The position numbers and the translations under genes were made by a program. Source: a virus (taxonomy: Duplodnaviria > Heunggongvirae > Uroviricota > Caudoviricetes). From it: a DNA stretch of 56,811 nucleotides. The notes beneath the pieces are model-generated. The model saw nothing but the letters and a program-made list of their open reading frames with translations. It was not told the DNA's origin and ran no database searches. The stretch lies in IMG/VR virus record IMGVR_UViG_2698536317_000003; one strand, given 5' to 3'. Below, one piece after another: positions 1,595-48,146 of the stretch (position 1 is its first letter; every line of letters starts with the position of its first letter).

Positions 1595-4264
1595 TTATTT
1601 TTCGCTTCCAGTCAACTTACTGACAAGCGCTTCAAGTTTTGCGATACGCTCATCCATTGCGGCAATGTTGGCGCGTAGGCTGGCGTTTTCTTCTTCCAGT
1701 TCGGTTACGCGGTTATCCGTTTCGCGTGCCACCTGGACAAGTAAACCAGTCACTGCGGCGTAGTCAACATTGAGGTAACGCGTTTCCTCGCGTAACTCGT
1801 TGCCGTCAGTGGTCGGGCCTTGTAACGCTTCACCGTAATGAGTAAACGATCCCACAGCTTCCGGCAGCGCCTCCATTACCTCCTGAGCGATAACGCCAGC
1901 GTAAGGCAGGCCGTTTTCCTTGAGGGTGTAGGTGTACCCGTTCATTTTACGGATGGCTTCAGTTGCATCACCTATAACCTGAATGTTGTCTTTTAAGTCC
2001 CTGTCTGATGATTGGGTAACTGAAGTGCATGTGATAGTGCCTTCAACCGCAAGCGAAGCAGAACCATCGGAAAGGTATTTAGCCACAAACAGCGTTTTTA
2101 ATGATGTTTGTGCGCCGTTTGTATCAACAGCTTTAACCTCATAATTCAGCGGGGATGATGAACCGCCCCATGTCATCACCTGTACGTTTGCCGAGGTTGT
2201 TGCGTAAGCAATATGCCTTATGAAACGTGTGTGCGTGCTATCAAAGATATAATGACCACTAAAATGATTGTCTGCTGTCCATACGTTTGCTGTATTAAGC
2301 GTTGCAAGTTGACACCAATCCTTGATCGTTCCATTTTCAATACTTCTTGCATAGAATGATGAGTTGCGCCCGGCGAACTGGGTAGCATAGTTACCGCTAA
2401 AGGTGACATGAAAACCACCCGCAACGCCAATACCCAAAGGACCATTGTCACTGCCTGCGATTGGCTTAAACTTCTCTACAGCATCCGTATGCTGATCGTT
2501 CCAGTTTTGCCCAGCATTTATGGCGTAACCTTTAGATGATCCTATCAGGCCATTTATGGTTAGTTTGGGCATCGTCATTGATATGTCTTCACCAACGGTA
2601 ATTCCGTTAAACAGACCTACGCGAGCACCACTACAAATATAATGGAGTCCTTCAGTTGTTGCAGAATAAAAACCACAACGCCCCATTCTGAAATCAAACA
2701 TAACCTGTAGGTTTTTATATGAACCTAAGGGGTCTGATACACCCCACGGTATGATCGTTTCTGTATCTTTACCACTATTATATACAACCTGGGCGGTTGG
2801 TACTTGTACTGTTACGCCCACAGGCAAGCGCATTTTAATAGGGAATGCCCTTGCTTCAACAAAAACAAAGAGCAGGTTATCTTTGTCTTTGCTGGAACTA
2901 CAGATAGAATGTAAAGCGATTTCTTTGTCGGTATAACGATTGTAAAAACCGTAACCTGCATCCTTTCTGTCACTCCACCCGCCAGTCCTTACATACCCGG
3001 AAAAGGTGTTACAGTTCATTGGGTAATTACCAGCGCCAGACACTGTAACAATATCGATCTGATAGCCAGTCAGGTAAGCGTTGTAATAATTGGCGTTTAT
3101 AATTATAGGGTAATACTTACCATCCTCAACGCCTTCCGGGGCTTCGATTGTTATTATCTCGCCACCGCCTATGGTTGGGATATTGATGTTTCTCCTTGTC
3201 TGTTCAGCGTTTTTAGGTTTGAAAGAGTCGGCTATAAATTCGCCGTTTATGTTGAGGCTTGCGTATTTGCTCACGCCGCCAGATCTTAAATGCATTGTTA
3301 ACTGGTCTGGCGAAGAAAGGTTTGTCTCAGGGTATAGTGCACCATAAATACGCTCCGATCCTGATGTACCAACCAAAACGCTGGAAAGAATACCTCCCGC
3401 AACCCATCCGGTAGTCACGTCAGTAGCTCTTTTTAGCGATACATTAGCAAACTGAGGACTATTTGAAGACCCAACGCCCAGGTTTGTTCTTGCTGTGTCT
3501 GCATCTCCTGCACCAGTGCCGCCAGCAGAAATTGAAAGCGGTAGATATTTACTAGCCTCTGAGTCGAAACAACCCCACGTTCCTGAATCATAGACGGTAA
3601 GGAATTTATTTGCGTTTTGAGAGCATACGCGTGTTTCTCCTGTTCTTTGAATAAGCCTGTTTACTTCATCCTTGCGTGCGTGACGTGTCCAGTTCGGTCC
3701 TGATGTTGCGACCCATGTGTAAGTATAAAGTGATCGCGTAGACCAACCGACAAAGACGCCTGCATACGAAGGCGATGTATCCTGCTGACAGATAAATCCA
3801 CTCAAAAATGATTCACCAGCCGCTACGGAAGGAAAACCCTTAGTCGTTTCCTTTATGCGCAAAAAGCCAACGTAAGAAGACGGATTGCCTGATATATCGA
3901 CGCAATCTCGCGGCTCTGGACCCAAGCCAATATTGCTGCCATCTATTGCGCTTGATATTTCATCTTCCTTTTCCTGATAAAAACGAAGCGTTTCTGCTAC
4001 ATCCTGGGCAAGTCCATCAACTGAGATCGAGTCAGAAAGCAGAATGCTAAATTTTGTCCCGGCGGCGATTGCGGGGTTAGCCGCTGGCGTTACTGACAGT
4101 TCAGTACCGCTCTTGATTTCTGTGATGGTAAAGATCTGAATGGGGTTGCTAATAGCAATAAGCGTGCAACCTACACGAATGAGAGAAAGCGGCGCGGAGA
4201 AGTTTGTGCCCGTGCCTTTAACAGTATTGCCGTTGATGGCAATTGTTCCAGTTGTGTAAATCAT
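1595..4264 (-). CDS. Phage tail fibre protein with C-terminal intramolecular-chaperone (peptidase S74-like) domain and terminal coiled coil
   Basis: 889-aa ORF; C-terminal region contains SSDRDLKDNI-type Ser/Lys motif and heptad-rich tail (ELEEENASLRANIAAMDERIAKLEALV) typical of auto-cleaving tail fibre/endosialidase chaperone domains. Confidence 0.65.
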   Translation of the reverse strand: MIYTTGTIAINGNTVKGTGTNFSAPLSLIRVGCTLIAISNPIQIFTITEIKSGTELSVTPAANPAIAAGTKFSILLSDSISVDGLAQDVAETLRFYQEKEDEISSAIDGSNIGLGPEPRDCVDISGNPSSYVGFLRIKETTKGFPSVAAGESFLSGFICQQDTSPSYAGVFVGWSTRSLYTYTWVATSGPNWTRHARKDEVNRLIQRTGETRVCSQNANKFLTVYDSGTWGCFDSEASKYLPLSISAGGTGAGDADTARTNLGVGSSNSPQFANVSLKRATDVTTGWVAGGILSSVLVGTSGSERIYGALYPETNLSSPDQLTMHLRSGGVSKYASLNINGEFIADSFKPKNAEQTRRNINIPTIGGGEIITIEAPEGVEDGKYYPIIINANYYNAYLTGYQIDIVTVSGAGNYPMNCNTFSGYVRTGGWSDRKDAGYGFYNRYTDKEIALHSICSSSKDKDNLLFVFVEARAFPIKMRLPVGVTVQVPTAQVVYNSGKDTETIIPWGVSDPLGSYKNLQVMFDFRMGRCGFYSATTEGLHYICSGARVGLFNGITVGEDISMTMPKLTINGLIGSSKGYAINAGQNWNDQHTDAVEKFKPIAGSDNGPLGIGVAGGFHVTFSGNYATQFAGRNSSFYARSIENGTIKDWCQLATLNTANVWTADNHFSGHYIFDSTHTRFIRHIAYATTSANVQVMTWGGSSSPLNYEVKAVDTNGAQTSLKTLFVAKYLSDGSASLAVEGTITCTSVTQSSDRDLKDNIQVIGDATEAIRKMNGYTYTLKENGLPYAGVIAQEVMEALPEAVGSFTHYGEALQGPTTDGNELREETRYLNVDYAAVTGLLVQVARETDNRVTELEEENASLRANIAAMDERIAKLEALVSKLTGSEK

Positions 4265-4423
4265 CGCAATGACTCCATTATGTTAATTAACGGAATAATT
4301 CTACCATTTTGTGATCTTTGTTGCATTTTCTGCTTACACAAAATGTATTTGTTGATTTATGTCAATGTTGCGTAAATGCGGTTTATGGATACTACAAACA
4401 ACGAAACAACGGAGGGTAAGACA

Positions 4424-4663
4424 ATGAAAGGCTTTAAAAATATAGCTATCGCTGCAATGGTTGCTGGTCTGGTTGGTTGTGCTGATATGCCGAAACGTGA
4501 ATGCACGGCAACTTACCAAACTGGCGGTAATGAGTATGCGGTTGCAGTCTTCGGTGTCGCGGATGTTGGCGGTCATAAAATGGTTAAGGCCGGGTATCCG
4601 TTTAACTTCCAATGGGTAAGCGTTGACAACTTCAATAAAACGGATTGCCCGGAACTAAATTAA
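4424..4663 (+). CDS. Small lipoprotein (signal peptide plus lipobox LVGC), opposite strand to tail genes; candidate Cor/Llp-like superinfection-exclusion protein
   Basis: GGAGGG RBS 8 nt before ATG at 4424; MKGFKNIAIAAMVAGLVGC signal/lipobox. Confidence 0.55.
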   Translation: MKGFKNIAIAAMVAGLVGCADMPKRECTATYQTGGNEYAVAVFGVADVGGHKMVKAGYPFNFQWVSVDNFNKTDCPELN

Positions 4664-5654: not shown

Positions 5655-8600
5655 TTACCATGATCCGGTAATTCGTCCAATTTGGACGCGCAACCTACCG
5701 TTTCCATCCCTAACGGAAATGGTTGTATTTGTTAGTTTCATCGCGCCCTCACCACTTACAGAACCGTAGTTTTCAAATGTGCCTGATTTATCCAGCTTCC
5801 AGCCTGTGCTATTGGAAACATAGTTGTTTGATTGAATGTATGAACCAATTTTTGCATTAGTGATTGACGCGTCTTTAATAAACGCCTCGCGCACATACAT
5901 TGCACCGTTAGACACATAGAAAGGCGTTGTATATGTGCCGTTTGCTGCGGTCATCAATACGAAGCGGTCAACAAGGAAGATACACTGCGATTGAACGTTA
6001 GTACCGTTTCCAGTCAGCCCAAGCGACATACCTGTTGCATACTTCATGCCGTTGTTGTCGGTTGCCAGCTTGATGGAATACGTCGCATCGACATTACCTT
6101 TGAAGTCGGTTAACGCTTTTGACGTCGTTTCTATCGCTGTTGTGTTCCCGTTAACGGTCACTGTTAGCTGATCGATTTTGCTTGATAATGCCTCGTCAGC
6201 CGTTGCCATAGACTGTGACCATTCTGTAATACTTGAGTTTACGGAATCGAAAGACGCTGAGATCTGGACGAATTTTTCAGCGCTTGATGCTTCATGCGTA
6301 GAAAGCGCCGTTGATACCTCAGACACCTTCGAGTTAATCGTACTGGTAAGCGATGAGTTAAGGCTACTTATCGCGTCAGTGCGTGCCTTCGTTTCGTCTG
6401 CAATTGCCTTGTCAATACGGGTCACGTTGCTTGTAACTTTGCCATCAAGGGTTGAAATTGACGCATTCACGCCACTGATGGCTTGTGCTCTGGCGCTGGC
6501 CTCATCAGCAATCGCCTGGTCCAGTCTGCTAACTTCGGATTCAGTGTTGCTTTCGAGGGTGTTAATGCTCGCATTCACTCCACTGATAGCTTCGGTTCTT
6601 GCGCTGGTTTCGTTGGCAATAGCCTGATCCAAACGTTTAACGCTGGCGTCGGTTTTCTTGTCGAGCGCTGAAATGCTTGCGTTAACGTCGCTCACTGCCT
6701 GGCTGCGTGCGCTGGTTTCGTCGGCGATGGCCTGATCAAGGCGGGAAACACTCGCTTCGGTTTTCTTATCAAGATCCGTGATCGATGCTTTTACCACGCT
6801 AACCGCTTCCGCTGTAGCCTTTTTCTCTTCAGCGATAACATTGTCAATACGGTCAATTTGCGCGTTGGTTTCTTTGCGTCCTTTCTTGTATTGGGCAGTA
6901 AGAGTAACACGCGTGTTGGTTTGAGCGATTGAGTTGTTAATCAGAGCAATCGAGGCGTTTTGCAGGCTTGCTTTGGTCTGGCTTATTTCGTCGCTGTTCT
7001 TGTCAACGTTGTTTTCAACCTTACCCAGTTCGGCGCTGATTCCAGATATAGCCTGCGCACGGGCGCTTGACTCGTCAGCAATAGCCTGGTCCAAGCGTTT
7101 GACGCTGGCGTTTGTGTTACTTTCGAGCGTTGTTAAATCAGCTTTGACCTCTGTTATTGCGTCGCTTCTTGCCTGAGTTTCGTCAGATATTGCCTTATCG
7201 AGTCTGCTCACGCTGGCGTCGGTTTTGCTTTCAAGATTGCTTATTGAGGCATTAACGCCGCTGATTGCCTGCGCACGGGCGCTTGATTCGTCGGCAATTG
7301 CTTGATCAAGACGGTTCACGCTGGCGTCAGTTTTCTTGTCAAGATCAGCGATCGATGCGTTCACGTTATTAATTGCTTCTGCGCGGGCGCTTGATTCGTC
7401 TGCCACTGCGCGTTCCACGCTGGAGATCTGACCCTTAAGGTTGGAATCCATCGTGTTCATTTCTGCCGTGATGGTTTTCAGCGATTCAGCCGTGGCCCGC
7501 TTCTCTTCGGCAATAACGTTGTCGATGCTGTCAATCTGCGCGTTTGTTTCTGATTGCCATTTCTTGTACTGTGCAGTGAGCGTAACCCGCGTGTTGGTCT
7601 GCGCGAGAGAGTTATTAATCAGCGCCAAAGATGCGTTTTGCAGGCTTGCTTTTGCTTGCGCCAGTTCGCTGTCGATTCTTTCGCTGGATACCTCTAGCGA
7701 GTCAATCCTTACCTCATGTTGCCCAATACCATCGGTGTTTTCACCAACCTTTTTATAAAGATCTTCCGTCTCTTTTTTCAGCGTGTCAGTGTCAGCTTTT
7801 ATTTCACCTGTTTCTGTGATTAAGCTGTCAGTGTCAGTCCTCAATTCGTCAGTGATGTTTGTCAGGTTGTCAGTTGCAGTTTTTAGGTTGTCAGTAGCGT
7901 TTTTAAGGTCATTTGTGGCGCTTTCGATAAGGTCGGCACGGTCGCCAAGATCTTTAATGTCGCCAATCATGTCCTTGAACTGTTCTGACTCCATGACATC
8001 CTTCATCACGTAGTCGCTGATTTCGTCGAAGTTTTCAGTCGGTTTTCCTGATGCCTCAACGAAGTCTGACACACCGAAAGCGTTACGCGTGCGCACATAA
8101 ACGTAATATTTATGGCCCGTGTTCATGCCGCCAAAAGTCCATTGGTAGCCTCGCCCGGTGAATTGCGCCAAAGTTGTTACTTTTGACGGGTCAGTGATCT
8201 GATTTTCACCTGAGTAGTAAAACTCATATGCTGTATCAGTTGTCAGGGTTGTTTTGCTGATCGGATACACTGTTGCCTGGAAAACGCCAGGAACCCAATT
8301 AACACCAATCGGGGCGGCTGGCGCACCAATGACCAGATCCACAATACTTTCCGCACCCTTCATGCCAGTGTCATTACGCCCGCGAATACCAAGCGTGTAG
8401 CTGCCAGCGTCGAGGCCATAAAAATCATAGCGGTAGTTCGTGGTTTCATAAGTTGCCACTACACGCCCATCGGCGTTATATACGCGAATTTCAAAGGTCA
8501 GGCGATGCGTTGTTGTCTGTGTTTCCCACGTTGCGCGACATTGAACAGTTTCAGAACCAACATTTAACACCTTCAGGTTTTCGATGTTCGGCACGCGGAA

Positions 8601-12365: not shown

Positions 12366-12384
12366 TTTCTCACCTTGTCATTTT

Positions 12385-12400
12385 GTGATCTGTGTCACGC
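12385..12400 (+). promoter_or_regulatory. CRP-like palindrome TGTGA-N6-TCACG upstream of the L/M moron
   Basis: tgtgatctgtgtcacg read directly; TATACAAT -10-like hexamer about 35 bp downstream. Confidence 0.4.
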
Positions 12401-12494
12401 TAAATCATACCAAAATGGATTGATCGCGGTTTATACAATATGTATATTTTACTCAAACGGAAGCACAGTTAACAAAATGGCGCGGAGGTGTGAG

Positions 12495-12650
12495 ATGGCT
12501 GATAAGGTGTGGAGGTTGAAGGTATTCCTGTCAGGTGGCAGGGAAATGACTGTAGCTCTGTATAAAGACGAAGGCGAGGCACTGACTGACGCGCTATTAC
12601 TCGCTGAAGACGAACGCGTTTTGGGGTACAGAATCGAACCTGTCAAATGA
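12495..12650 (+). CDS. Small moron protein A (51 aa), paralogous to N-terminus of next ORF
   Basis: GGAGG RBS 6 nt before ATG 12495; motif VFLSGGREM...DEGEAL resembles VWLSGCKEC...SEEAAL in the next ORF. Confidence 0.45.
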   Translation: MADKVWRLKVFLSGGREMTVALYKDEGEALTDALLLAEDERVLGYRIEPVK

Positions 12651-12662
12651 GAGGTTAACGAA

Positions 12663-13010
12663 ATGCAAAAATATAGTCTTGATGTGTGGTTAAGTGGTTG
12701 CAAGGAGTGTTTCGGATTATTTGATAGCGAAGAGGCAGCTTTGGAAGAAGGAAGGATTCTTGAATGTAGTTTAGGCCATCCAGTGAAATATGCCGCTAAT
12801 CCGGTGCAGATAATTGATGAGGTGGAAAACATGAATCCGAAAGATATTAACTTTAACGTCAATGTTGAATTTGCTGATTCTATGGATCAGTCTTGCCCTG
12901 GTGAAATACACGCAAAAGGTTTCCCGGCAGACGATCCGCAAGCAAAACGCGAATACGAAAAAGCTGCGAAAGACTTCTGCATAGATAACCTGGGCGCATT
13001 CTATAAATAA
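12663..13010 (+). CDS. Moron protein B (115 aa), unknown function
   Basis: GAGG RBS; opposite strand to tail operon; followed by co-directional ORFs and a terminator. Confidence 0.55.
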   Translation: MQKYSLDVWLSGCKECFGLFDSEEAALEEGRILECSLGHPVKYAANPVQIIDEVENMNPKDINFNVNVEFADSMDQSCPGEIHAKGFPADDPQAKREYEKAAKDFCIDNLGAFYK

Positions 13011-13019
13011 GGCGGCAAC

Positions 13020-13268
13020 ATGGGGCGGCGCAATCACGGCGATTATGTGTACACGTTGAAACAAGCCGCCCGCCTCGTCGGTTATCATGAGCACGAATTT
13101 ATTGATTTGCTGATTGAGCGCGGGATACTGTACCAGGTCTGTTTAACGCTGTACCCAAAAGCGAAATACCTACAGGAAAAGTCATTCATCATCATGACGG
13201 ATGAAAACCAGGTCAATCATTCATTCGTTACTGATAAAGGTGTCAATTATCTGCGTGATAACTTATAG
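13020..13268 (+). CDS. Moron protein C (82 aa), probable HTH DNA-binding protein
   Basis: Segment YTLKQAARLVGYHEHEFIDLLIERGIL is HTH-like. Confidence 0.45.
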   Translation: MGRRNHGDYVYTLKQAARLVGYHEHEFIDLLIERGILYQVCLTLYPKAKYLQEKSFIIMTDENQVNHSFVTDKGVNYLRDNL

Positions 13269-13278
13269 GTGGCAGATT

Positions 13279-13416
13279 ATGAAAATAGAAGTTTTGGCGC
13301 TAATAATAATGGGCTTGATCGTATTTGGTGTTCACGCTGCTGGTTGGGACTGGGCGGCAATAGCAAACAACATGGCGCACGCTCACCCAATGAGTTTGAT
13401 GCACATTAACTACTGA
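13279..13416 (+). CDS. Moron micro-protein D (45 aa), predicted membrane peptide
   Basis: MKIEVLALIIMGLIVFGVHAAGW hydrophobic helix; ATG 13279. Confidence 0.35.
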   Translation: MKIEVLALIIMGLIVFGVHAAGWDWAAIANNMAHAHPMSLMHINY

Positions 13417-13421
13417 TAAGA

Positions 13422-13450
13422 AAACCCCGCGCGAAGCGGGGTTGTTATTA
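13422..13450 (+). terminator. Rho-independent terminator ending the L/M moron
   Basis: CCCCGC-GCGAA-GCGGGG hairpin followed by TTGTTATTA. Confidence 0.6.
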
Positions 13451-13645
13451 TACGCCATCAACCAAAAATAAAACCTCCTTGCCTTCCCTGGATCTGCATC
13501 CCACATAACCATCACCAACATCATGAAGATACCATGTATCGCCATTGTCAGCCTTTACAGTAAGGTCGTTGATCTCATAGTCTTCAAATAATGTAAATGC
13601 GTCAGTTTTGTCAACTACACAAGTCCCGTACATATTAACCCCCAC
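13448..13645 (-). CDS. Hypothetical small protein (65 aa) downstream of M
   Basis: ORF co-oriented with tail operon; no recognisable motif. Confidence 0.3.
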   Translation of the reverse strand: MGVNMYGTCVVDKTDAFTLFEDYEINDLTVKADNGDTWYLHDVGDGYVGCRSREGKEVLFLVDGV

Positions 13646-13998
13646 TAGCTGACAACTTGCTCAAATGTTGCGTTTAGCGTGTATACAGGCCCGTCTTTTG
13701 TCATACTCCAGCTACGACAAACAAAAAGCCTTTGCACTCCATCCATCGACGGCGTCCAGTAGAAAGCCTCGACAGCGCCGCGCGCCCTCAAAAATGCTTC
13801 AGCCTGGATCGCCACGTTTCCACCATCACCGCATCCCGCGCTACTGCCTTTAAAAACCAGGGTATAGCTATCAAGCAACGTGTTAATCCCTTTCGCCTGG
13901 CGCTGTTCATAACCATCACCAAGTTTAACGACCGACACATTTGGTTCCCTGGTCACGCTGTAGCTTCTTTGCGGCGTCCATTTGAAAACTTCTGGCAT
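13645..13998 (-). CDS. M: Minor tail protein M
   Basis: 117-aa ORF between tape measure and L, size and position as lambda gpM. Confidence 0.75.
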   Translation of the reverse strand: MPEVFKWTPQRSYSVTREPNVSVVKLGDGYEQRQAKGINTLLDSYTLVFKGSSAGCGDGGNVAIQAEAFLRARGAVEAFYWTPSMDGVQRLFVCRSWSMTKDGPVYTLNATFEQVVS

Positions 13999-14023
13999 GA
14001 TTCCCCCTATAAGTTACATATTG

Positions 14024-14055
14024 TATACATCTTTACGCGTTGCTACGCGAAAAAT
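14024..14055. promoter_or_regulatory. Conserved 31-bp element ATACATnTTTACGCGTTGCTACGCGAAAAAT, copy 1 (upstream of M / moron E)
   Basis: Near-identical copy at 26650-26680 upstream of portal; contains inverted repeat CGCGT-AGCA-ACGCG on the minus strand. Confidence 0.4.
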
Positions 14056-14167
14056 GATAAATTCGTCACAAGAATTATACCCAGTTTACGAAATGGCTTC
14101 ACACAGGACGCAACAAGATGTATATAGAAAGCAAGAAGAGAAAGCAGTACCAACAAAGGGGGCCAAT

Positions 14168-14323
14168 ATGGAACGCTATGTAGTGGTAATGCTGAACAAA
14201 GCATTCGAACAGGTGGAAGTTGCGATTGTGAAGGGTTTTGATGATGCATTCAAATACGGTCAATTCATGATGAATGCAAAAGAAGATGAATACCGTGATT
14301 TCTTCCTGAAAGTGGTCAACTGA
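14168..14323 (+). CDS. Moron protein E (51 aa), unknown
   Basis: AAGGGGG RBS before ATG 14168; opposite strand to tail genes. Confidence 0.4.
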   Translation: MERYVVVMLNKAFEQVEVAIVKGFDDAFKYGQFMMNAKEDEYRDFFLKVVN

Positions 14324-14343
14324 TTGATTGCGTGGGGTGAGTT

Positions 14344-14598
14344 ATGAAATTGGTGGCGATTGGCAAAAACCTGAAAGCACAGAAAAACGCACAGGACCGG
14401 ATCATCAAAAAGGGCAAGGCTTTATTAAATGCTTTCCTGAGAAAAGAGGCCACCCCCAAAAAATTACGCGATGGCTACGGTTATAAATTTGATATTAACC
14501 CCGACTGGCGGTTATTCAGCGAAGATTTAAAGGCGTGGTTAATTATCGACCATCTGGAATATAACAGACACTGTGGGGTTAAAGGGGCGCATAAGTAA
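14344..14598 (+). CDS. Moron protein F (84 aa), basic, unknown
   Basis: ORF co-directional with E between M and tape-measure genes. Confidence 0.45.
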   Translation: MKLVAIGKNLKAQKNAQDRIIKKGKALLNAFLRKEATPKKLRDGYGYKFDINPDWRLFSEDLKAWLIIDHLEYNRHCGVKGAHK

Positions 14599-14732
14599 GG
14601 CGGGCATGAAGGGCGATAAATTCACCCGGCGGGGAACTGGAATGTTTGACAGGTAATTTTGGATAGGGTGTATCGCGCGGAATGGTTGTTTATAAATACG
14701 AAAATAGCCCCGGCATTGTACCGGGGTTTGGT

Positions 14733-17888: not shown

Positions 17889-18147
17889 GATTTAACCTCA
17901 TACAAAATATGATCTATGCCTCTATTTTATACAAAATGGATTTACCTCAGTGAACACATTTTGTATAAAGAAGCCAAAGGAAAGGGATAGAGCGAAGGGA
18001 CTTAAAAGGCCGGATTGACCGGAGGAAGCAAAAGAGGATAAGAAAATGAAAAACGTAAACTACCACCCCAACGAACATGAGCGCTATGCTGACTTTATCG
18101 AGCAAATGTTAAAAGCGCTGAAAAACAAAAACTAAGCGGGGTGAAAT

Positions 18148-18507
18148 ATGAAAAGTCTGGCAAAAATCTTAATCGTGGCGGTACTTGCAGGAGTTGCGCT
18201 TAATGCTAATGCTGAGCACTCTCCGTCCGCAAAATACATACTTCGTGAATGTGCGCATAATGCTCAGTTGTACGATATAAAGCATGGTGACGGTAATGGT
18301 GATCTGGAAATGCCATTTAACGTTGGCTGTATTCATTACGCAATGAAGCCAGTATTAGAAAAAACCGCTGAATGGAAAGATCTTAATAGCAAGTACAATG
18401 AATTAAAAGAGGCGGCAAAAAACAATAAAGCGTCACTAAATGCGTTTAAGGATGGCGAGTCTTATGGTGTAAACGTGGCCCACAGAGTTGATGCGTATTT
18501 CAACTAA
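18148..18507 (+). CDS. Secreted (signal-peptide) moron protein, 119 aa
   Basis: MKSLAKILIVAVLAGVALNANA signal peptide; opposite strand to tail operon; own terminator. Confidence 0.55.
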   Translation: MKSLAKILIVAVLAGVALNANAEHSPSAKYILRECAHNAQLYDIKHGDGNGDLEMPFNVGCIHYAMKPVLEKTAEWKDLNSKYNELKEAAKNNKASLNAFKDGESYGVNVAHRVDAYFN

Positions 18508-24387: not shown

Positions 24388-25322
24388 TCTTCGCCATATT
24401 TAGCGTGCGCAACCTTATAGTTTTCTTGCGCCCGTTCTAATATTCGTTTGTTTAATATATTACCGTCTTCGTCAACTAATACGGTAATAGTGCTGCATTT
24501 GCAGTTAATTGAATTAGGGGATCTACTCCACCATTCGCGCTGCTCTTCTATGGTGTATGTTTTCCCGTGTCGCTGTGCGTGTGATAGCCTGGTAGTCGGT
24601 GACAATGCCGAAATGTGCATTTGCATAGTGCGCAAGTTAAGCTCATCCGATGCGGCTTCTGCCTCATCCATACGCGCTGTGCGTAACGCTGTGCATATTT
24701 CAGTACGGGCAATACGTTTGCACCTGTATAGCGGTAATTGCGTTTCCTGCTGCAATGTGCGCGCTATTTCTAGTGGGTTTAGGCCACGGGCCATGCCTTC
24801 GGTTAATCGGCGGGCCATATCCTTCTTGATCTGTGCGGTAAGCCCGCGCATCTCTTCAAATACACGGGTACGAACCAGGGCAAGGCGTGTGCGATATGTC
24901 TGACTGGTTAATACCGCAGACACTTCAGGGTAAGCCCTGGAATATGTGACTGACTGGTTAGCGAGGTTGGCATATTCCTGAGAAGTGCCGCGCTGATATG
25001 CCACCTTCACGTATTCCTGCCAGAACCAGAAGTTTTCCGGGTCTGTTAACTCGAATATTTCATCAATCATGTCGCTGGCGTCTTCCAGCAAATCATGTAA
25101 TTCGTCGATGTAGATCTGGAAGGTGTATTTTTTATTAACAGCCAGGGTATATTGTATTCTGTCCAGTATGGCGATATATGGATCGGCTACTTTCTTCAGG
25201 CAGGCTTTAAAACGCTTGATAGCACCAGACCTTAACTTCCCTGTCATGGTCGGGTCTTCGGTGTTAGATGGCATTATCGCGGCTGGAGGTATTCGCCTGA
25301 TTATCTTCTTCACCCTCATCAT
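24378..25322 (-). CDS. Head morphogenesis protein (SPP1 gp7 / Mu F-like)
   Basis: 314-aa ORF downstream of portal. Confidence 0.65.
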   Translation of the reverse strand: MMRVKKIIRRIPPAAIMPSNTEDPTMTGKLRSGAIKRFKACLKKVADPYIAILDRIQYTLAVNKKYTFQIYIDELHDLLEDASDMIDEIFELTDPENFWFWQEYVKVAYQRGTSQEYANLANQSVTYSRAYPEVSAVLTSQTYRTRLALVRTRVFEEMRGLTAQIKKDMARRLTEGMARGLNPLEIARTLQQETQLPLYRCKRIARTEICTALRTARMDEAEAASDELNLRTMQMHISALSPTTRLSHAQRHGKTYTIEEQREWWSRSPNSINCKCSTITVLVDEDGNILNKRILERAQENYKVAHAKYGEDWE

Positions 25323-26655
25323 CGTCCTCCTCTTCCGTTTCTACTTCACTGGCTGGGCCATCGTATCCGGCAGCCTCGCGGATCTCGTCACCGCTAAATA
25401 TTTCTTCACCAGTAGCCAGACAAGCCTGATTGATTTGTGCCATTTTGTCTGCGGCTTCCAGTAGCTCTGCTTTGGTCATGGCGTTAAGGTCGTCCCATAG
25501 CACTGATACATCTACTGGCATACTGATAAGGCGTAGATCTGCCATCTTGCGGAACAGATCTTCAATCTCGCCACCGATTTCCTCCCTGCGGGTCATGCAG
25601 CGGCTGTTGAAGTAACGCAGGTCTTCGGTTGATGCACGCTCTCCCTGTTGGTTCCCAACCAGGATGCGGGTTGGAATATCAACACCAGCGGCGGCGGTTT
25701 GCAGGTTTACATCATAGGTTGATGACGGGTCAGACACGGCAGTAACCAGCGGGCTTACTGTCGCACCCTGTAACGCCATCATTACGTCATTACCCTTATT
25801 CATTTCAGCCGTAGCCTCATTGAATCTTTCGCGTAACTCTGTAACGTCGCAATCGTATGTTGCAGCCAGGGAACGGAAGTCAATCTCTTTATCGAACGAA
25901 ATAGCAAGCTGACGCGCTGCGTTTTTCAGGAATGATTCACCACTACCGCCTTCCACTTTTTCCAGTGATACGAATGCGTTGTAGGAAGGTTCAAGGAAAG
26001 CGATGACATCATCAGAATAGTCGCCAAAGATGAATATGCGGTCAGGGTGGATCTTTCTGGCAATGGTCTTACTGTTAATGCGTTCTTTGTATTCCCACCA
26101 TGTCGGCAGGCCATAATTTTCACTGTCCGGGTCTTCTTCGAACTCCTTCGGTGTAAGAGCGCCAGCCCACACAGGGGTAAATTTGGCAATACCTACGCCT
26201 TTTGTCACTGGCTGATCCCACGGCTGGTTATCTCTGACATGAATCAACAGACCAGCATAACGACCAATGAGGCGGCGGCGATCACATTCAGCAACAGTGC
26301 GCCAAAATCTGTTGTTAAATTTCTTCTTGATTTCTCTTTCCCACGGTGTTTCCTTTTTCGCTTTCTCGTCTTCAGTTCCCTCAATCATCTTTGGCTTGGT
26401 GCGCCAGCAAGTCGTAACAATCTTTTCTACAGCACCGTGAGCGATGCCGCCGCGTCTGTACAGTTTGTATAGATCGTGGTACGTGATCTCTTCTTTGAAT
26501 CCGTATTCACTCCACGCAGCATCACGTTTGGCATCTATCCCCATAGTGAATGGGTTGGCTGCGGCATAGCGGGCGTAGGCCGCCTGGCGTTGTGACAAGG
26601 CAGCATTAACCGCCAATTCTAAATTGGATGGCATAATGTTTACTCCTGAATACAT
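25264..26655 (-). CDS. Portal protein
   Basis: 463-aa ORF after large terminase, acidic C-terminus; likely true start at internal ATG 26634 after AGGAG. Confidence 0.8.
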   Translation of the reverse strand: MYSGVNIMPSNLELAVNAALSQRQAAYARYAAANPFTMGIDAKRDAAWSEYGFKEEITYHDLYKLYRRGGIAHGAVEKIVTTCWRTKPKMIEGTEDEKAKKETPWEREIKKKFNNRFWRTVAECDRRRLIGRYAGLLIHVRDNQPWDQPVTKGVGIAKFTPVWAGALTPKEFEEDPDSENYGLPTWWEYKERINSKTIARKIHPDRIFIFGDYSDDVIAFLEPSYNAFVSLEKVEGGSGESFLKNAARQLAISFDKEIDFRSLAATYDCDVTELRERFNEATAEMNKGNDVMMALQGATVSPLVTAVSDPSSTYDVNLQTAAAGVDIPTRILVGNQQGERASTEDLRYFNSRCMTRREEIGGEIEDLFRKMADLRLISMPVDVSVLWDDLNAMTKAELLEAADKMAQINQACLATGEEIFSGDEIREAAGYDGPASEVETEEEDDDEGEEDNQANTSSRDNAI

Positions 26656-26680
26656 GTTTACGCGTTGCTACGCGAAAAAT
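26650..26680. promoter_or_regulatory. Conserved 31-bp element, copy 2 (upstream of portal start)
   Basis: tacatgtttacgcgttgctacgcgaaaaat matches 14024-14055 with one mismatch. Confidence 0.4.
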
Positions 26681-26712
26681 AGAAAAACTTGTGGGGGATT
26701 GTGGGATGGTTT

Positions 26713-28197
26713 TTAAAATCCGCGCAGGCGCTTCGGTAACATGAGGCCTATCGCCTGTGGCTGGCTTAGTTCGGTAATACCCCATACCATTGCGTCCATA
26801 CGGTCAGGGGATTTTTTAGCGGTGGCTGGCACATATTCCATCATTTGATTTTCCAGCGTGTACAGGCTGCCAGTGTGGGCCACCCTTCCCTGCGCATATA
26901 GTGCCGATATTGGCTCTGCACGGGCGAATTTACCTTTGCTTGCGTGCACCTTAACAATGCGGCCTTTGAATCCGGCATTGCGTAGCGTGGCCTCTGCCAT
27001 GTCACCGCCCTGGTTGGTTTCGATAACCATCGCGTCAGCTTCATGGATGTCATATGCTTTCATGGATGCTTGCGCCCAGTCGTTAGGCGACATGCGGCCT
27101 GAATAGTCACCATCAACAGAATACTGAGCATTCTTACCGCCACCATATGCGGAACACGCCACGATCCCCGTTTCGTCAGATTCATCAGATGACGTTGTCG
27201 CCGGGTCGATGGCTATTACCGTGCGGATCTTGTCCTGCGTTATCTGCATCCGGTGCGCTGCGGTTATCATCGCTTCAGTCCACAATGCACCCTCTTCGTC
27301 GAATTTACGCGGGCGCTGCATGTACTGGGCCTCAAATGACCGCCTGTGTGCTTTCAGTCCAGCTTCATGGGCGTCATTGTGCTTTTTAGGCCATAGCCAG
27401 CCGTCTGGCAGGTTGTGAGGAATAGGGATAGCGAACTCGTTTTCAGGATACAAATCCCGGTAGTCAACGCTGTTGTCGATCTTCACTGGCAGGTTCAGGT
27501 GATACCATTTCTCCCCGCTTCCACCACGTAGCAGGTAGCCGGACAAATCATCGTAGTGGATGCGCTGCATGATGACGATAACAGGCGTCGTTTGCACTGC
27601 CAGACGTGAAGCAAGCGTGTCGTTATAGTTAGTGTTTACCTGCTTTCTCACCACGTCAGAGTAAGCGTCGGCGGGCTTTAATGGGTCGTCGATGATTAAC
27701 GCGCCGTTAAATCCTGGTTCCATATACCCCGCACGGAACCCAGTAACCTGGCCAAGCGATGAAGTTGCATACACGCCGCCACCGTATTCAGTCCACCACA
27801 TCGATTTTGAGTTTGCATCGTTGCGGATCTTCATGGGCCACATTGCCTGATACTCAGGCGTACAGATCATGTTTCTTACAGTTGAGGAGTTGAGTAGCGC
27901 CAGGTTGTTGGAATAGGAAACGTGAAGGAATCGTGTGCGGGGATTTATTGCGAGGGACCGCGCCATCATATTGATAGTAGCGATCATGGTTTTGCCGTAC
28001 CCTGGGGGGATGTTGATGATGAGTCGGGTTATCTCACCATTGACAACGCGTTGTAGTGCGTCGCGGATAGCTAAATGATGGCCTGAGATTAACATCTTCG
28101 TTCCGTTCGCTTGCTTGTAAAAGTAGCGATTGAAAAACAGGCCATCGTTTTCACATTTGGACTGAATAACTCGTTCTTTGATTGTCAGCATAATCAC
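26713..28197 (-). CDS. Terminase large subunit
   Basis: 494-aa ORF with Walker A PPGYGKT and C-terminal nuclease-like region. Confidence 0.9.
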   Translation of the reverse strand: MIMLTIKERVIQSKCENDGLFFNRYFYKQANGTKMLISGHHLAIRDALQRVVNGEITRLIINIPPGYGKTMIATINMMARSLAINPRTRFLHVSYSNNLALLNSSTVRNMICTPEYQAMWPMKIRNDANSKSMWWTEYGGGVYATSSLGQVTGFRAGYMEPGFNGALIIDDPLKPADAYSDVVRKQVNTNYNDTLASRLAVQTTPVIVIMQRIHYDDLSGYLLRGGSGEKWYHLNLPVKIDNSVDYRDLYPENEFAIPIPHNLPDGWLWPKKHNDAHEAGLKAHRRSFEAQYMQRPRKFDEEGALWTEAMITAAHRMQITQDKIRTVIAIDPATTSSDESDETGIVACSAYGGGKNAQYSVDGDYSGRMSPNDWAQASMKAYDIHEADAMVIETNQGGDMAEATLRNAGFKGRIVKVHASKGKFARAEPISALYAQGRVAHTGSLYTLENQMMEYVPATAKKSPDRMDAMVWGITELSQPQAIGLMLPKRLRGF

Positions 28198-31504: not shown

Positions 31505-31540
31505 CCTCCAACAAAGCAAAAACCCGGCGCGGGGCCGGGT
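31505..31540 (-). terminator. Intrinsic terminator immediately upstream of holin RBS (tR-prime-like position)
   Basis: ACCCGGC-GCGGG-GCCGGGT hairpin followed on the minus strand by TTTTTGCTTTGTT. Confidence 0.55.
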
Positions 31541-31604
31541 AATTACAATTTCGCATTGTTAGGAAATATTTTAATCTGTTTGTTTGCGCTCTACAAATAC
31601 GGCG

Positions 31605-32204: not shown

Positions 32205-32405
32205 TCAATCATTTTTGCGCTCCTTAATGGCTCGCATGATGTTAATACGCATAGCGTCACTGAATGCGTATATCGTAATGAAAGGCCAGAAGACTAGCTC
32301 GAACCAAATAATGCCGTCACTATCAACAGCTTTCTGAAAAGCGCCCATTAAAATGACACCAGCCAGGTAAATTATAACTACCGCAACAATAATGCATTCA
32401 ATCAT
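32205..32405 (-). CDS. Small membrane protein (MIECIIVAVVIIYLAGVILMGAF...), full-length copy
   Basis: Starts inside 227-bp duplication copy 1 and extends into unique sequence. Confidence 0.4.
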   Translation of the reverse strand: MIECIIVAVVIIYLAGVILMGAFQKAVDSDGIIWFELVFWPFITIYAFSDAMRINIMRAIKERKND

Positions 32406-32529
32406 CTTCACCCCCAAGATCATGATAAATATCGTTAGGGTCTTCACCATGTTCCTCGCAAAAACGCTCAAATAGCGCCCAATTTTCAGAAAGAAACATG
32501 ATTAATAAATTTTTATACCACTCTTCCAT
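32398..32529 (-). CDS. Acidic small protein MEEWYKN...GGEDD (43 aa), copy 1
   Basis: GAGGA RBS; identical copy at 32625-32756. Confidence 0.4.
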   Translation of the reverse strand: MEEWYKNLLIMFLSENWALFERFCEEHGEDPNDIYHDLGGEDD

Positions 32530-32539
32530 TTAATCATCC

Positions 32540-32632
32540 TCAGTCACTATCAACAGCTTTCTGAAAAGCGCCCATTAAAATGACACCAGCCAGGTAAATT
32601 ATAACTACCGCAACAATAATGCATTCAATCAT
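32540..32632 (-). CDS. Truncated small membrane peptide (30 aa) created by the duplication junction
   Basis: Same N-terminus as 32205-32405 ORF, stop created at repeat junction. Confidence 0.3.
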   Translation of the reverse strand: MIECIIVAVVIIYLAGVILMGAFQKAVDSD

Positions 32633-32756
32633 CTTCACCCCCAAGATCATGATAAATATCGTTAGGGTCTTCACCATGTTCCTCGCAAAAACGCTCAAAT
32701 AGCGCCCAATTTTCAGAAAGAAACATGATTAATAAATTTTTATACCACTCTTCCAT
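32625..32756 (-). CDS. Acidic small protein MEEWYKN...GGEDD (43 aa), copy 2
   Basis: Identical to copy 1; start abuts stop of upstream ORF. Confidence 0.4.
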   Translation of the reverse strand: MEEWYKNLLIMFLSENWALFERFCEEHGEDPNDIYHDLGGEDD

Positions 32757-33011
32757 TTAATCATCCTCATCGTCTTCATGTTCAGCCAGGAACTCATCAA
32801 CCACGCGGCAAGTCACTGGCGGGATGTATTCGAAATCATCAGAATCAAGATCAAGCGTCCGGCTGTCGCCGTCATCGTCCAGCGTATTCATCCCTAACTC
32901 ACCGAAAGGGCCATACCCAATATGGCCCAGGTATTCGCATCCAGTAGTAAAGCCAGGGTATTCGCCTTTGCACCAGATCTTGTATAGCTTACTTGATGCG
33001 CTCAATTTCAA
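32757..33011 (-). CDS. Hypothetical protein (84 aa, acidic C-terminus)
   Basis: ORF in small-gene block. Confidence 0.35.
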   Translation of the reverse strand: MKLSASSKLYKIWCKGEYPGFTTGCEYLGHIGYGPFGELGMNTLDDDGDSRTLDLDSDDFEYIPPVTCRVVDEFLAEHEDDEDD

Positions 33012-33917: not shown

Positions 33918-34127
33918 TTATCCTTCTTTGCCTCCCTTGAACCCCAAACACTCCGCGTATTCGTCAATGCTTAATGCTTCTTCACCTGGTGCCAGTAGTT
34001 CGAAGTATCTGGCATATAACTCAAACACCCAGGCAGGATATTTTGCGTTTGCGTTCATCTTCTTGCCCCCCCATCCGTCTTTCTGTGGCTTATATATAAC
34101 AAAATGGCACTGCCGAAACAATGCCAT
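33918..34127 (-). CDS. Hypothetical protein (69 aa)
   Basis: Start ATG lies inside a CCATTTTGTATAC motif. Confidence 0.3.
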   Translation of the reverse strand: MALFRQCHFVIYKPQKDGWGGKKMNANAKYPAWVFELYARYFELLAPGEEALSIDEYAECLGFKGGKEG

Positions 34128-34174
34128 TTTGTATACATTGTGATACGAGTCACATTTTGCGCAATTAACTTTTA

Positions 34175-39262: not shown

Positions 39263-39383
39263 AATGCTCTCTCCTTTTAAGGTGATTTCTACGCATTTCA
39301 GCGCTGCCGGATTTTTAAAGAGCATTTTGCTTGCTTGAAGTATACAAAATGGATACGTGTAAACAAGACGAATAGCGCCATTA

Positions 39384-39399
39384 TGTGATCCACATCACG
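39384..39399. promoter_or_regulatory. CRP-like palindrome TGTGA-N6-TCACG nested in a 29-bp palindrome
   Basis: ccattatgtgatccacatcacgcaatgg read directly (39378-39406). Confidence 0.4.
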
Positions 39400-39421
39400 C
39401 AATGGCGCCATTTTGTAAATT

Positions 39422-46748: not shown

Positions 46749-46786
46749 GCCGCACTTCCAGCGGCTGACCAGATTTTTAATGAGCG
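46749..46786 (-). promoter_or_regulatory. nutL-like site (boxA CGCTCATTAAAAAT plus boxB-like hairpin)
   Basis: Minus-strand reading CGCTCATTAAAAATCTGGTCA-GCCGC-TGGAAGT-GCGGC. Confidence 0.4.
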
Positions 46787-47841: not shown

Positions 47842-48146
47842 GTCGCTACCCTATAACCTCAAAAAGTTTGATGCAAGTCACAAAACGTGTATTTTAAGCC
47901 TTGATCTTAAAATTCCATTTTGTAAACTTGCAGACAAGGTAAGGCCATACTTGCAAAGACGCAAGGAAAAAGATAACGGAAGGCACAAAAAGGCACATAC
48001 CTTAAGCTCTTTAAAAATCCGGTGTCGCTGCGAAGCGAAAAACAAATATCACGCAACGGCGGGATCTGTTGAGCGGTCAGTCACTGCTATCTAATGCTAA
48101 TGGGATGCCCGCCCGCGCGTTCATTTTAACCATAGGAGAAAATACA
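47842..48146. promoter_or_regulatory. Divergent immunity control region (OR-like) with nutR-like element
   Basis: CTTGCA-type palindromes, CCATTTTGTAAAC motif (47915-47927), boxA-like GCTCTTTAAAAAT with GNRA hairpin TCGCT-GCGA-AGCGA (48001-48029). Confidence 0.4.

Follow-up and report, generated by a model that had tools for sequence, protein, structure and literature searches.

Background

Stabilising or processing hairpins are known from the 5' stem-loop of the E. coli ompA message, from papBA processing and from the processed late mRNAs of phages f1 and T7. Phage translational operators, such as the coat-protein hairpin of MS2, the RegA and gp32 sites of T4 and the Com site of Mu, form a second group of small hairpins in phage messages. 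The element described here, a short repeat that we call the box, would share with the first group a short GC hairpin with A/U-rich single-stranded flanks, a position just upstream of a ribosome-binding site and inside a long polycistronic message, and repetition within the same phage. The ompA, papBA, f1 and T7 hairpins, however, are defined by their structure and tolerate sequence change, whereas the stem sequence of the box is invariant; moreover, the T7 sites are long RNase III duplexes, compared with 5 bp in the box. With the translational operators the box would share a hairpin by a translation start, bindable by a protein that tunes the production of a low-copy structural protein. Unlike the box, the MS2, T4 and Mu operators lie over or directly beside the start codon or the Shine-Dalgarno sequence and are read largely through loop and bulge bases, whereas the core hairpins of the box end 14 and 28 nt upstream of the respective Shine-Dalgarno sequences and have a partly variable loop.

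The box was found in a virus genome record of 56,811 nucleotides (IMG/VR IMGVR_UViG_2698536317_000003, Caudoviricetes), the whole of which we refer to as the window. The area around the box is 88–91% identical to the Escherichia phages mEp515, mEp013, mEp010, mEp021, mEp554, mEp044 and MagusPhagus, and this similarity places the window among the temperate coliphages of the mEpimmI (mEp021) group. This group was defined only recently and is as common as the lambdoid phages in human-gut isolates; the only parts of its regulation studied so far are the repressor and the N-like early antitermination system. The mEpimmI phages are Nus-dependent, non-lambdoid temperate coliphages, and the mEp021 group has three nut sites, nutL, nutR1 and nutR2 (PMC11893012). 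The same description mentions no promoter, hairpin or operator at the sites of the box, and a search of the literature for the core sequences of the box gave no match. The box is therefore new as an individual element, while it belongs to a familiar class, that of the short cis-regulatory dyads and hairpins in phage late leaders.

Results and discussion

Two copies of a 34-nt repeat

The preliminary description of this DNA had pointed to a 31-bp element that occurs twice in front of late genes. The element is real, but it extends two to three bases further than was claimed: the repeat finder (family D19) delimits 34 nt, with copies at 14022–14055 and 26647–26680 that are identical at 32 of 34 positions (94%). 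Read on the gene (minus) strand, the box is ATTTTT-CGCGT-AGCA-ACGCG-TAAA(G/C)ATGTAT(A/T)CA, copy 1 (M-type, 14022..14055) being ATTTTTCGCGTAGCAACGCGTAAAGATGTATACA and copy 2 (portal-type, 26647..26680) being ATTTTTCGCGTAGCAACGCGTAAACATGTATTCA. The two share an exact 24-mer, TTTACGCGTTGCTACGCGAAAAAT on the plus strand, at 14032–14055 and 26657–26680; no third match to it was found in the window with up to 3 mismatches allowed, and 100 dinucleotide-preserving shuffles yielded 0 matches. The inverted repeat CGCGT-AGCA-ACGCG, as originally noted, is present in both copies and forms the core stem-loop at 14036..14049 and 26661..26674 on the minus strand. In the general form CGCGT-N4-ACGCG it lies within imperfect 9-bp arms, TTTTCGCGT / ACGCGTAAA, and in copy 1 the dyad is extended by the T-run at 14054..14050 and by TAAA at 14035..14032.

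A weight matrix made from 17 distinct instances of the box in relatives gives the two copies 56.7 and 53.4 bits, and no other site in the window exceeds the 3.9 bits of the opposite strand of copy 1. Neither the weight-matrix scan nor counts of half-sites nor searches for CGCG-N4-8-CGCG hairpins revealed weaker copies in the window. Since everything else scores below 4 bits, the window contains exactly two sites of the box, without a degenerate family around them.

Position relative to genes and transcripts

Both copies precede the starts of minus-strand late genes, as had been claimed. The gene 3' of copy 1 (13645..13998, minus strand) encodes a minor tail protein similar to lambda M (PF05939, E = 1e-29; phrog_14); its ATG (13998..13996) lies 25 nt from the end of the box, and its Shine-Dalgarno sequence, GGGGG, is at 14007..14003. 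The gene 3' of copy 2 (25264..26634, minus strand) encodes the portal protein (PF06381 Phage_portal_3, E = 1e-19; portal in the mEp021 annotation), with its start at 26634..26632 and the Shine-Dalgarno sequence AGGAG at 26647..26643, the first base of which is also the final base of copy 2, a one-base overlap. Both boxes are 15–25 nt from the ribosome-binding regions of the downstream genes. The preceding gene, that for the large terminase subunit TerL (26713..28197, minus strand; phrog_38), has its stop codon (26715..26713) 32 nt upstream of copy 2. As copy 2 falls inside the 78-nt gap between TerL and portal, it is intercistronic in the late operon.

An in-frame ATG within copy 2 (26655) has no Shine-Dalgarno sequence, is GTG in one relative (L197) and does no more than make the mechanical portal ORF longer. 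The mEp021 record places the portal start at this ATG, while the start supported by a Shine-Dalgarno sequence is 21 nt downstream; in mEp021 itself the downstream ATG is ATA. The portal homologue (window 25264–26655) bears the name "anti-CBASS protein Acb1 family protein" in RefSeq E. coli prophages; Pfam assigns the same homologue to Phage_portal_3 (PF06381), and it is a neighbour of TerL. Coding roles for the box itself were rejected: a minus-strand ORF of 68 aa that ends at the TAG of the loop crosses the divergent promoter region and has its frame broken by indels in relatives, and a 7-codon ORF from the box ATG is gone in most relatives (GATA for GATG).

The minus strand holds nearly all genes of the window, among them those for a CI-like repressor, the N-like protein Gp17, Q, the lysis proteins, TerS and TerL, and the order after TerL is portal, head, tail, tape-measure protein (TMP), M, L, K, I, J. 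Q is of the phage-82 type (PF03589). A candidate late promoter resembling lambda PR' (TTGTAG-17-TAAAAT, 31596..31517, minus strand) lies just upstream of the holin gene, with a strong terminator (ACCCGGCCCCGCGCCGGGTTTTT) about 25 nt further on; the candidate is situated 5 kb downstream of the Q gene and does not adjoin it. This candidate Q-dependent promoter with its short terminated transcript, together with the Q gene, suggests that there is one long antiterminated late transcript, which would include copy 2.

The tail operon is unusual in that three reverse-oriented (plus-strand) accessory modules with terminators cut into it. The module before TMP (18148–18507) consists of a 119-aa gene; the one between TMP and M (14168–14598) contains a 51-aa ORF and a ParE-like toxin (PF24732), probably a toxin-antitoxin pair; and the one between L and the small ORF that follows M (gp70 in mEp021) is a cluster with a KilAC/ANT-like protein (12375–13416). 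Bidirectional terminators flank the modules at 14706–14728 and 13423–13443. The late gene after each module has in front of it a minus-strand CCATTTTG motif and a -10-like hexamer. For the M leader, the putative promoter (14074..14096, minus strand) is made up of CCATTTCGTAAAC at 14096..14084 and TATAAT at 14079..14074. The TATAAT is invariant in 26/26 distinct relatives, with varying bases on its flanks, and is probably part of a promoter; the promoter scan found no -35 to go with it. Copy 1 begins about 20 nt downstream of this TATAAT and would occupy about +13 to +45 of a transcript from the putative promoter. No conserved promoter was seen upstream of the portal copy among the relatives, nor any promoter or terminator between TerL and portal, and the restarts before TMP and L have another motif and no box. 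Because the TMP and L restarts lack the box and the portal copy lacks a conserved promoter, the box is a module separate from the putative restart promoters, and what the two copies have in common is most likely a sense-strand leader sequence that adjoins a ribosome-binding site.

In one relative (IMGVR_UViG_2695420423_000006) a freestanding gene for a 157-aa protein resembling HNH-type homing endonucleases (4035–4508) is inserted between the box leader and M; the portal protein of this contig is 100% identical to that of the window. An insertion 3' of the leader suggests that the leader may serve as an expression signal for whichever gene follows it.

Conservation and distribution

Relatives were gathered through the portal or the M protein and not through the box. 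The search with the M protein gave 31 loci with M at least 84% identical, comprising 26 distinct upstream sequences, all of which have the box; M homologues at or below 72% identity come from other phage groups, with unrelated DNA upstream. The search with the portal protein gave 51 loci (45 distinct), and the box is present in all of those whose sequence extends upstream of the portal start. Occurrence in related phages, on which the preliminary description had staked its proposal, is thus found throughout the relatives, and in all of them both copies have the same orientation with respect to the downstream gene. Diversity in the portal copy is 0.013, and 0.004 between the box and the ATG, against 0.27 at third codon positions of the portal gene. 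In the M copy it is 0.079 over the whole box and 0.047 over the 22-bp dyad, with almost all of the variation in the centre; the comparison values at the M locus are 0.33 at third positions and 0.23–0.34 in neighbouring non-coding DNA. The box is a real, lineage-specific cis element under strong purifying selection in front of two late genes.

The spacer between the TerL stop codon and the box is visibly scrambled among relatives, and the non-coding DNA next to the box has diverged, by drift or by replacement, as far as its border. Two unrelated TerL 3' ends meet the common sequence about 30 nt upstream of it. The proposal that the element marks module boundaries fares poorly, as the mosaic breakpoints lie upstream of the box, by about 30 nt for the TerL alleles or else by more than 100 nt, and none lies inside it; since purifying selection is strong, a pure boundary or linker role is disfavoured.

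The box is restricted to this phage group. A sensitive BLAST search of 50,697 phage records found it in the seven mEpimmI phages and in none outside mEpimmI, and it is absent from Cronobacter phage ES2 and Klebsiella phage RAH1 despite 65–70% identity of their TerL/portal DNA. Neither the box nor a portal relative was detected among the GTDB species representatives (portal search), while 34 of 5,426 complete E. coli genomes carry the portal copy. When metagenomes were scanned with the upstream promoter as the anchor, only box variants that were already known came back. In phage ES2 (at 1280–1400), TerL and portal are separated by 388 nt, in which a tRNA-like 3' end (GGTTCGAGTCC...), a small ORF and a terminator take the place of the box.

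Constraint within the box and predicted folding

Near-invariant positions of the box are the T-run, both CGCG arms, the T-A-G that opens the centre, the TAAA after the stem and, further towards the 3' end, T, T-A-T and C-A. The arms TTTTCGCG/CGCGTAAA do not vary; the 3' half of the centre does (CAA, AAG, AAT, AAA, AGG, CTA, CGA and one deletion), as do the two bases that follow TAAA. Conservation is asymmetric, since TAG, the 5' half of the centre, and 14 nt of 3' flank are kept and the mirror positions are not; such asymmetry fits a directional element, RNA or promoter, better than a symmetric operator.

Changes in the core CGCG pairs are rare and one-sided, namely C to U on either arm (C-G to U-G, G-C to G-U), and they keep the pairing on the sense-strand RNA, whereas the opposite strand would have A-C mismatches. 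The closing pair is U-A or U-G (U-G in 18/36 distinct sequences), and the pairing is lost as U-U in 5/36. In the core helix, 0 pairs are changed on both sides, 3 pairs show a one-sided wobble and 98% of the cells are paired. There is no compensatory covariation in the box stem, and the pairing is no better than in column shuffles, at a low sequence diversity. When the stem is extended to about 12 pairs, 93% are paired, and about one sequence in three lacks pairing at the outer positions 8/36 and 11/33. A hairpin is thus compatible with the alignment and unproven by it; invariant arms, a variable 3' half of the centre and no compensatory covariation imply that a sequence-specific factor would read the box.

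The centres occur as haplotypes. TAGCAA in the portal copy goes with TAGAAG in the M copy in 24 of the 30 genomes that have both copies; the two centres differ in 28/30 and are the same in 2/30, and the window shows the rare case of TAGCAA at both sites. As TAGCAA and TAGAAG each occur at both sites, they are interchangeable and likely to undergo occasional gene conversion.

The 41-nt RNA of copy 1 has a predicted fold of -12.0 kcal/mol (z = -3.6) and the portal copy one of -6.2 kcal/mol; for larger leaders the fold energies are no better than those of shuffles (z = -0.7 and -0.3). In the predicted folds the hairpin stands alone and leaves the Shine-Dalgarno sequence free. The RNA hairpin suggested in the preliminary description gains from the sense-strand wobbles and from the fit of the leader position, but not from covariation.

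Possible functions

Copy 2 lies between TerL and portal and copy 1 downstream of TATAAT, so both copies are most likely transcribed as leader, and we infer that the box is transcribed and would act as RNA. Our preferred reading, put forward tentatively and at somewhat less than even odds, is an RNA stem-loop in the leaders of late mRNAs, where it serves as an operator or stabiliser. As a cis-acting element, the box would belong to the untranslated leaders of portal and of the tail-tip protein M and be read on the sense strand as a stem-loop whose 4–5 bp CGCG stem is preceded by a U-run and followed by UAAAnnUnUAUnCA. Either a sequence-specific factor would bind this stem-loop, or the stem-loop would be a site of processing and 5' protection, in which case it would combine an RNase E entry site with a 5'-protective hairpin. 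In both versions it would set the stability or the translation of the downstream message independently of the upstream RNA. An invariant stem with a partly variable loop is, however, the opposite of what is expected of a purely structural hairpin or of a typical target of a loop-recognising RNA-binding protein; the pattern is closer to that of half-sites for a DNA-binding protein that acts as a dimer, which counts against the RNA reading, and we found no candidate RNA-binding factor for the box.

A more specific proposal, which we consider rather doubtful, is that a dedicated factor recognises the box and thereby co-regulates no more than two low-copy morphogenesis genes, portal and tail-tip M, within the Q-antiterminated late region, the box being either a translational or RNA-stability operator or a new class of -35-less, dyad-dependent internal late promoter. 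Such a factor could be phage-encoded, for example by a small ORF downstream of Q, or could be a structural protein that feeds back on its own message. If this were true, it would constitute a second layer of late control, one without a known counterpart in lambda-like or other Nus-dependent coliphages; if the box is only a leader hairpin, it is a small addition to phage annotation. It has no bearing on a long-standing general problem and would not surprise a specialist. It does offer a handle on the restart and balance of late genes across an interrupted tail operon, in a group with a genetically tractable member, mEp021.

Invariant arms on either side of a 6-bp centre with a variable 3' half are also the classic pattern of a dimeric operator. 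A dimeric protein of the phage or the host may thus bind the DNA half-sites TTTTCGCG / CGCGTAAA, as a repressor, as a roadblock or at the activator site of an internal late promoter that lacks a -35; this is the main rival of the RNA reading and, in our view, only somewhat less probable. In the promoter version, AAA(G/C)AT would be the -10-like hexamer, the CA that ends the repeat would be the start, and the palindrome would be centred near -20.5. On the 3' side of the palindrome the invariant A-A-A-n-n-T and the conserved C-A 6–7 nt on do mimic -11A / -7T and -1/+1, and the similarity between the copies ends exactly at CA. Repeated motifs before phage late genes are most often promoters, and three reverse-oriented modules with terminators make internal restarts necessary in the tail operon. 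Such a promoter would resemble in its working the Lpa-dependent late promoters of phage P1, which also have a repeated motif directly upstream of late structural genes and a palindrome in place of the -35, about 20 bp before the putative start and followed by a weak -10-like hexamer. A promoter of the P1 type would have a dyad near -22, a -10 hexamer and a gene for a cognate activator (Lpa); the geometry of the box would fit if AAAnnT, itself a weak hexamer, is taken as the -10. The best -10-like hexamers inside the box (AAAGAT/AAACAT) are poor, with A and not T at -12 and no -35, and, unlike P1, this phage has a Q antiterminator, no recognised gene for an Lpa-like or other activator, and only two copies of the motif, its other late restarts being without it. 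A scan of both strands at both loci (13900–14300 and 26500–26900) for sigma-70 promoters with a -35 and a -10 at 16–18 bp spacing, at least 9/12 matches and A2 and T6 in the -10 found 0 sites; of the internal promoter suggested in the preliminary description, the consensus sigma-70 form thus falls away, and a promoter here would be activator-dependent, with AAAnnT as its -10-like hexamer. A start at CA would, however, leave the portal mRNA with a 13-nt leader that begins with the Shine-Dalgarno sequence, the M copy already has the invariant TATAAT 20 nt upstream, and the restarts of TMP and L use a different motif. No activator candidate emerged among the 30 ORFs scanned, in which the only recognised transcription regulators are Q, the N-like protein and the CI-like repressor. 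The asymmetric conservation of the TAG and the 3' flank, and core stem changes that are wobble-compatible on the sense strand, also speak against a DNA palindrome.

The Nus-dependence of the group and its three nut sites (PMC11893012) raise the question whether the box could be an additional boxB-like hairpin for the N-like Gp17 or another arginine-rich peptide, with a late nut-type role in the read-through of terminators after the capsid, tape-measure and M-gp70 genes; we consider this improbable. The window has its own nut-like sites, each with boxA and boxB: one like nutR1 (46786..46749, minus strand; loop UGGAAGU, GCCGC-UGGAAGU-GCGGC), one like nutR2 (39324..39291, minus strand; loop UGAAAU, GCGC-UGAAAU-GCGU) and one like nutL (48006–48038, plus strand; loop UGCGAA, UCGC-UGCGAA-GCGA). 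They match the published description of mEp021, with the boxA GCTC(T/A)TTAAAAATC and loops that start with UG. Their 4–5 bp GC stems and U-initiated, purine-rich loops have the format of CGCG-UAGAAG-CGCG, one M-type variant (L094) even reads UGGAAG, and CUCAUU, the core of the nutR1 boxA, precedes most M-type copies; the M copy is also downstream of a probable promoter, and both copies have terminators downstream. What distinguishes the box from the nut sites is the missing boxA: no GCTCTTTAA-like sequence was found 5–10 nt upstream of the hairpin, neither copy being preceded by the boxA of this phage (GCTCTTTAAAAATC) with its 5–6 nt spacer to boxB, but by TATCATTTTT / TTCTATTTTT, with a partial CTCATT in some relatives. 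The loop, too, does not conform, as it begins with A and not with the G required for a GNRA-like fold (AGCA / AGAA, or as hexaloops UAGCAA / UAGAAG, with GGAA in the rare variants L094 and L236), and the portal-type UAGCAA is even less similar. With the features of both boxA and boxB missing, a nut site of the lambda type was rejected. The box further lies in the late morphogenesis region, whose operon already has the Q antiterminator, whereas nut sites belong to early operons. The authors who searched the genomes for the three mEp021 nut sequences reported three nut sites, none of them at the positions of the box (PMC11893012).

It is likewise improbable that the box is a duplicated relic or a recombination linker, that is, a piece of leader that was copied, kept similar by gene conversion and at most useful as a patch of homology for module exchange. 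Weak homology between the copies may run about 14 nt further upstream (ACGAAnTT..CTnAT), as it would after a duplication, the box is lineage-specific, and the presence of both haplotypes at both sites, with the same centre in both copies in 2/30 genomes, points to occasional conversion. Yet different centres in 28/30 genomes mean that conversion is rare, at both loci the arms and flanks show a diversity 4- to 20-fold below that of synonymous sites, the adjacent non-coding DNA has changed up to the very edge of the box, and no mosaic breakpoint falls within it. The GC-rich hairpin and its intergenic position could suggest an intrinsic terminator or RNase III site, but this is very improbable: the T-run precedes the stem and none follows it on either strand (the plus strand has AAAAAT after the stem), and a terminator scan found no site in 13900–14300 or 26500–26900. 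The stem comprises 5 bp in the portal copy; in the M copy of the window it reaches about 15 bp at most, interrupted by bulges, and the outer pairs are not conserved, whereas RNase III substrates need far more, roughly 20 bp of mostly continuous duplex.

Several known elements were rejected as identities of the box. Rfam families gave 0 matches at gathering thresholds over the whole window on both strands. The RfaH ops consensus on the non-template strand, GGCGGTAGnnTG, shares only GTAGC with the box when compared by eye (5/12 positions), and the M-type majority has GTAGA. The consensuses of CRP, TyrR, CpxR, PurR, LexA and of sigma-54, -28, -32 and -E showed no match by eye. A tyrosine-recombinase core should have two inverted arms around a 6–8 bp overlap that is identical in the partner sites, yet the centres differ in 28/30 genomes, and recombination between the direct copies would cost the phage its essential head-tail module of 12.6 kb. 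As an antitoxin operator the box would depend on the 51-aa partner of the ParE-like toxin, which has no recognisable DNA-binding domain, and the portal copy is not near any toxin module. The NagC/Mlc operator has invariant TT/AA at +/-5,6 from the dyad centre (PMC4288165), where the box has CG/CG.

Other repeated sequences in the window

A dispersed motif, CCATTTTGTA(T/A)AC, occurs 26 times on both strands against 4.4 expected, with sites at 4304, 12405–12480, 14016–14096, 17927–17968, 34094–34137, 39340–39421, 47072, 47915 and 51702. It often forms inverted pairs in divergent intergenic regions, with a -10-like hexamer right after it (TATACT, TAAACT, TATAAA, TATGAT); copies of it precede TMP, M and L, and others are found in the immunity region and a short way upstream of nutR2. 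Some hits are mere start-codon contexts (AAAATGG), while the motif as a whole may represent a family of promoters or operators; to our knowledge, the operators of the mEpimmI repressor have not been defined in the literature. A few bases after two of the putative restart promoters there is a CRP-like dyad, at 12385–12420 before L (TGGTATGAT-TTAG-CGTGA-N6-TCACA) and at 14056–14079 before M (TATAAT-TCT-TGTGA-N6-T(A/C)TCA), both on the minus strand; the two dyads may be a shared operator that overlaps the transcription starts.

Tandem repeats occur at two further places. Among the small ORFs that separate Q from the lysis genes there is a perfect tandem duplication of 227 nt (32316–32542 and 32543–32769), and the J-like host-specificity gene (1594 aa) has tandem repeats of 108 nt, or 36 codons, at window positions 6370–7420, in six to seven copies of 63–82% identity.
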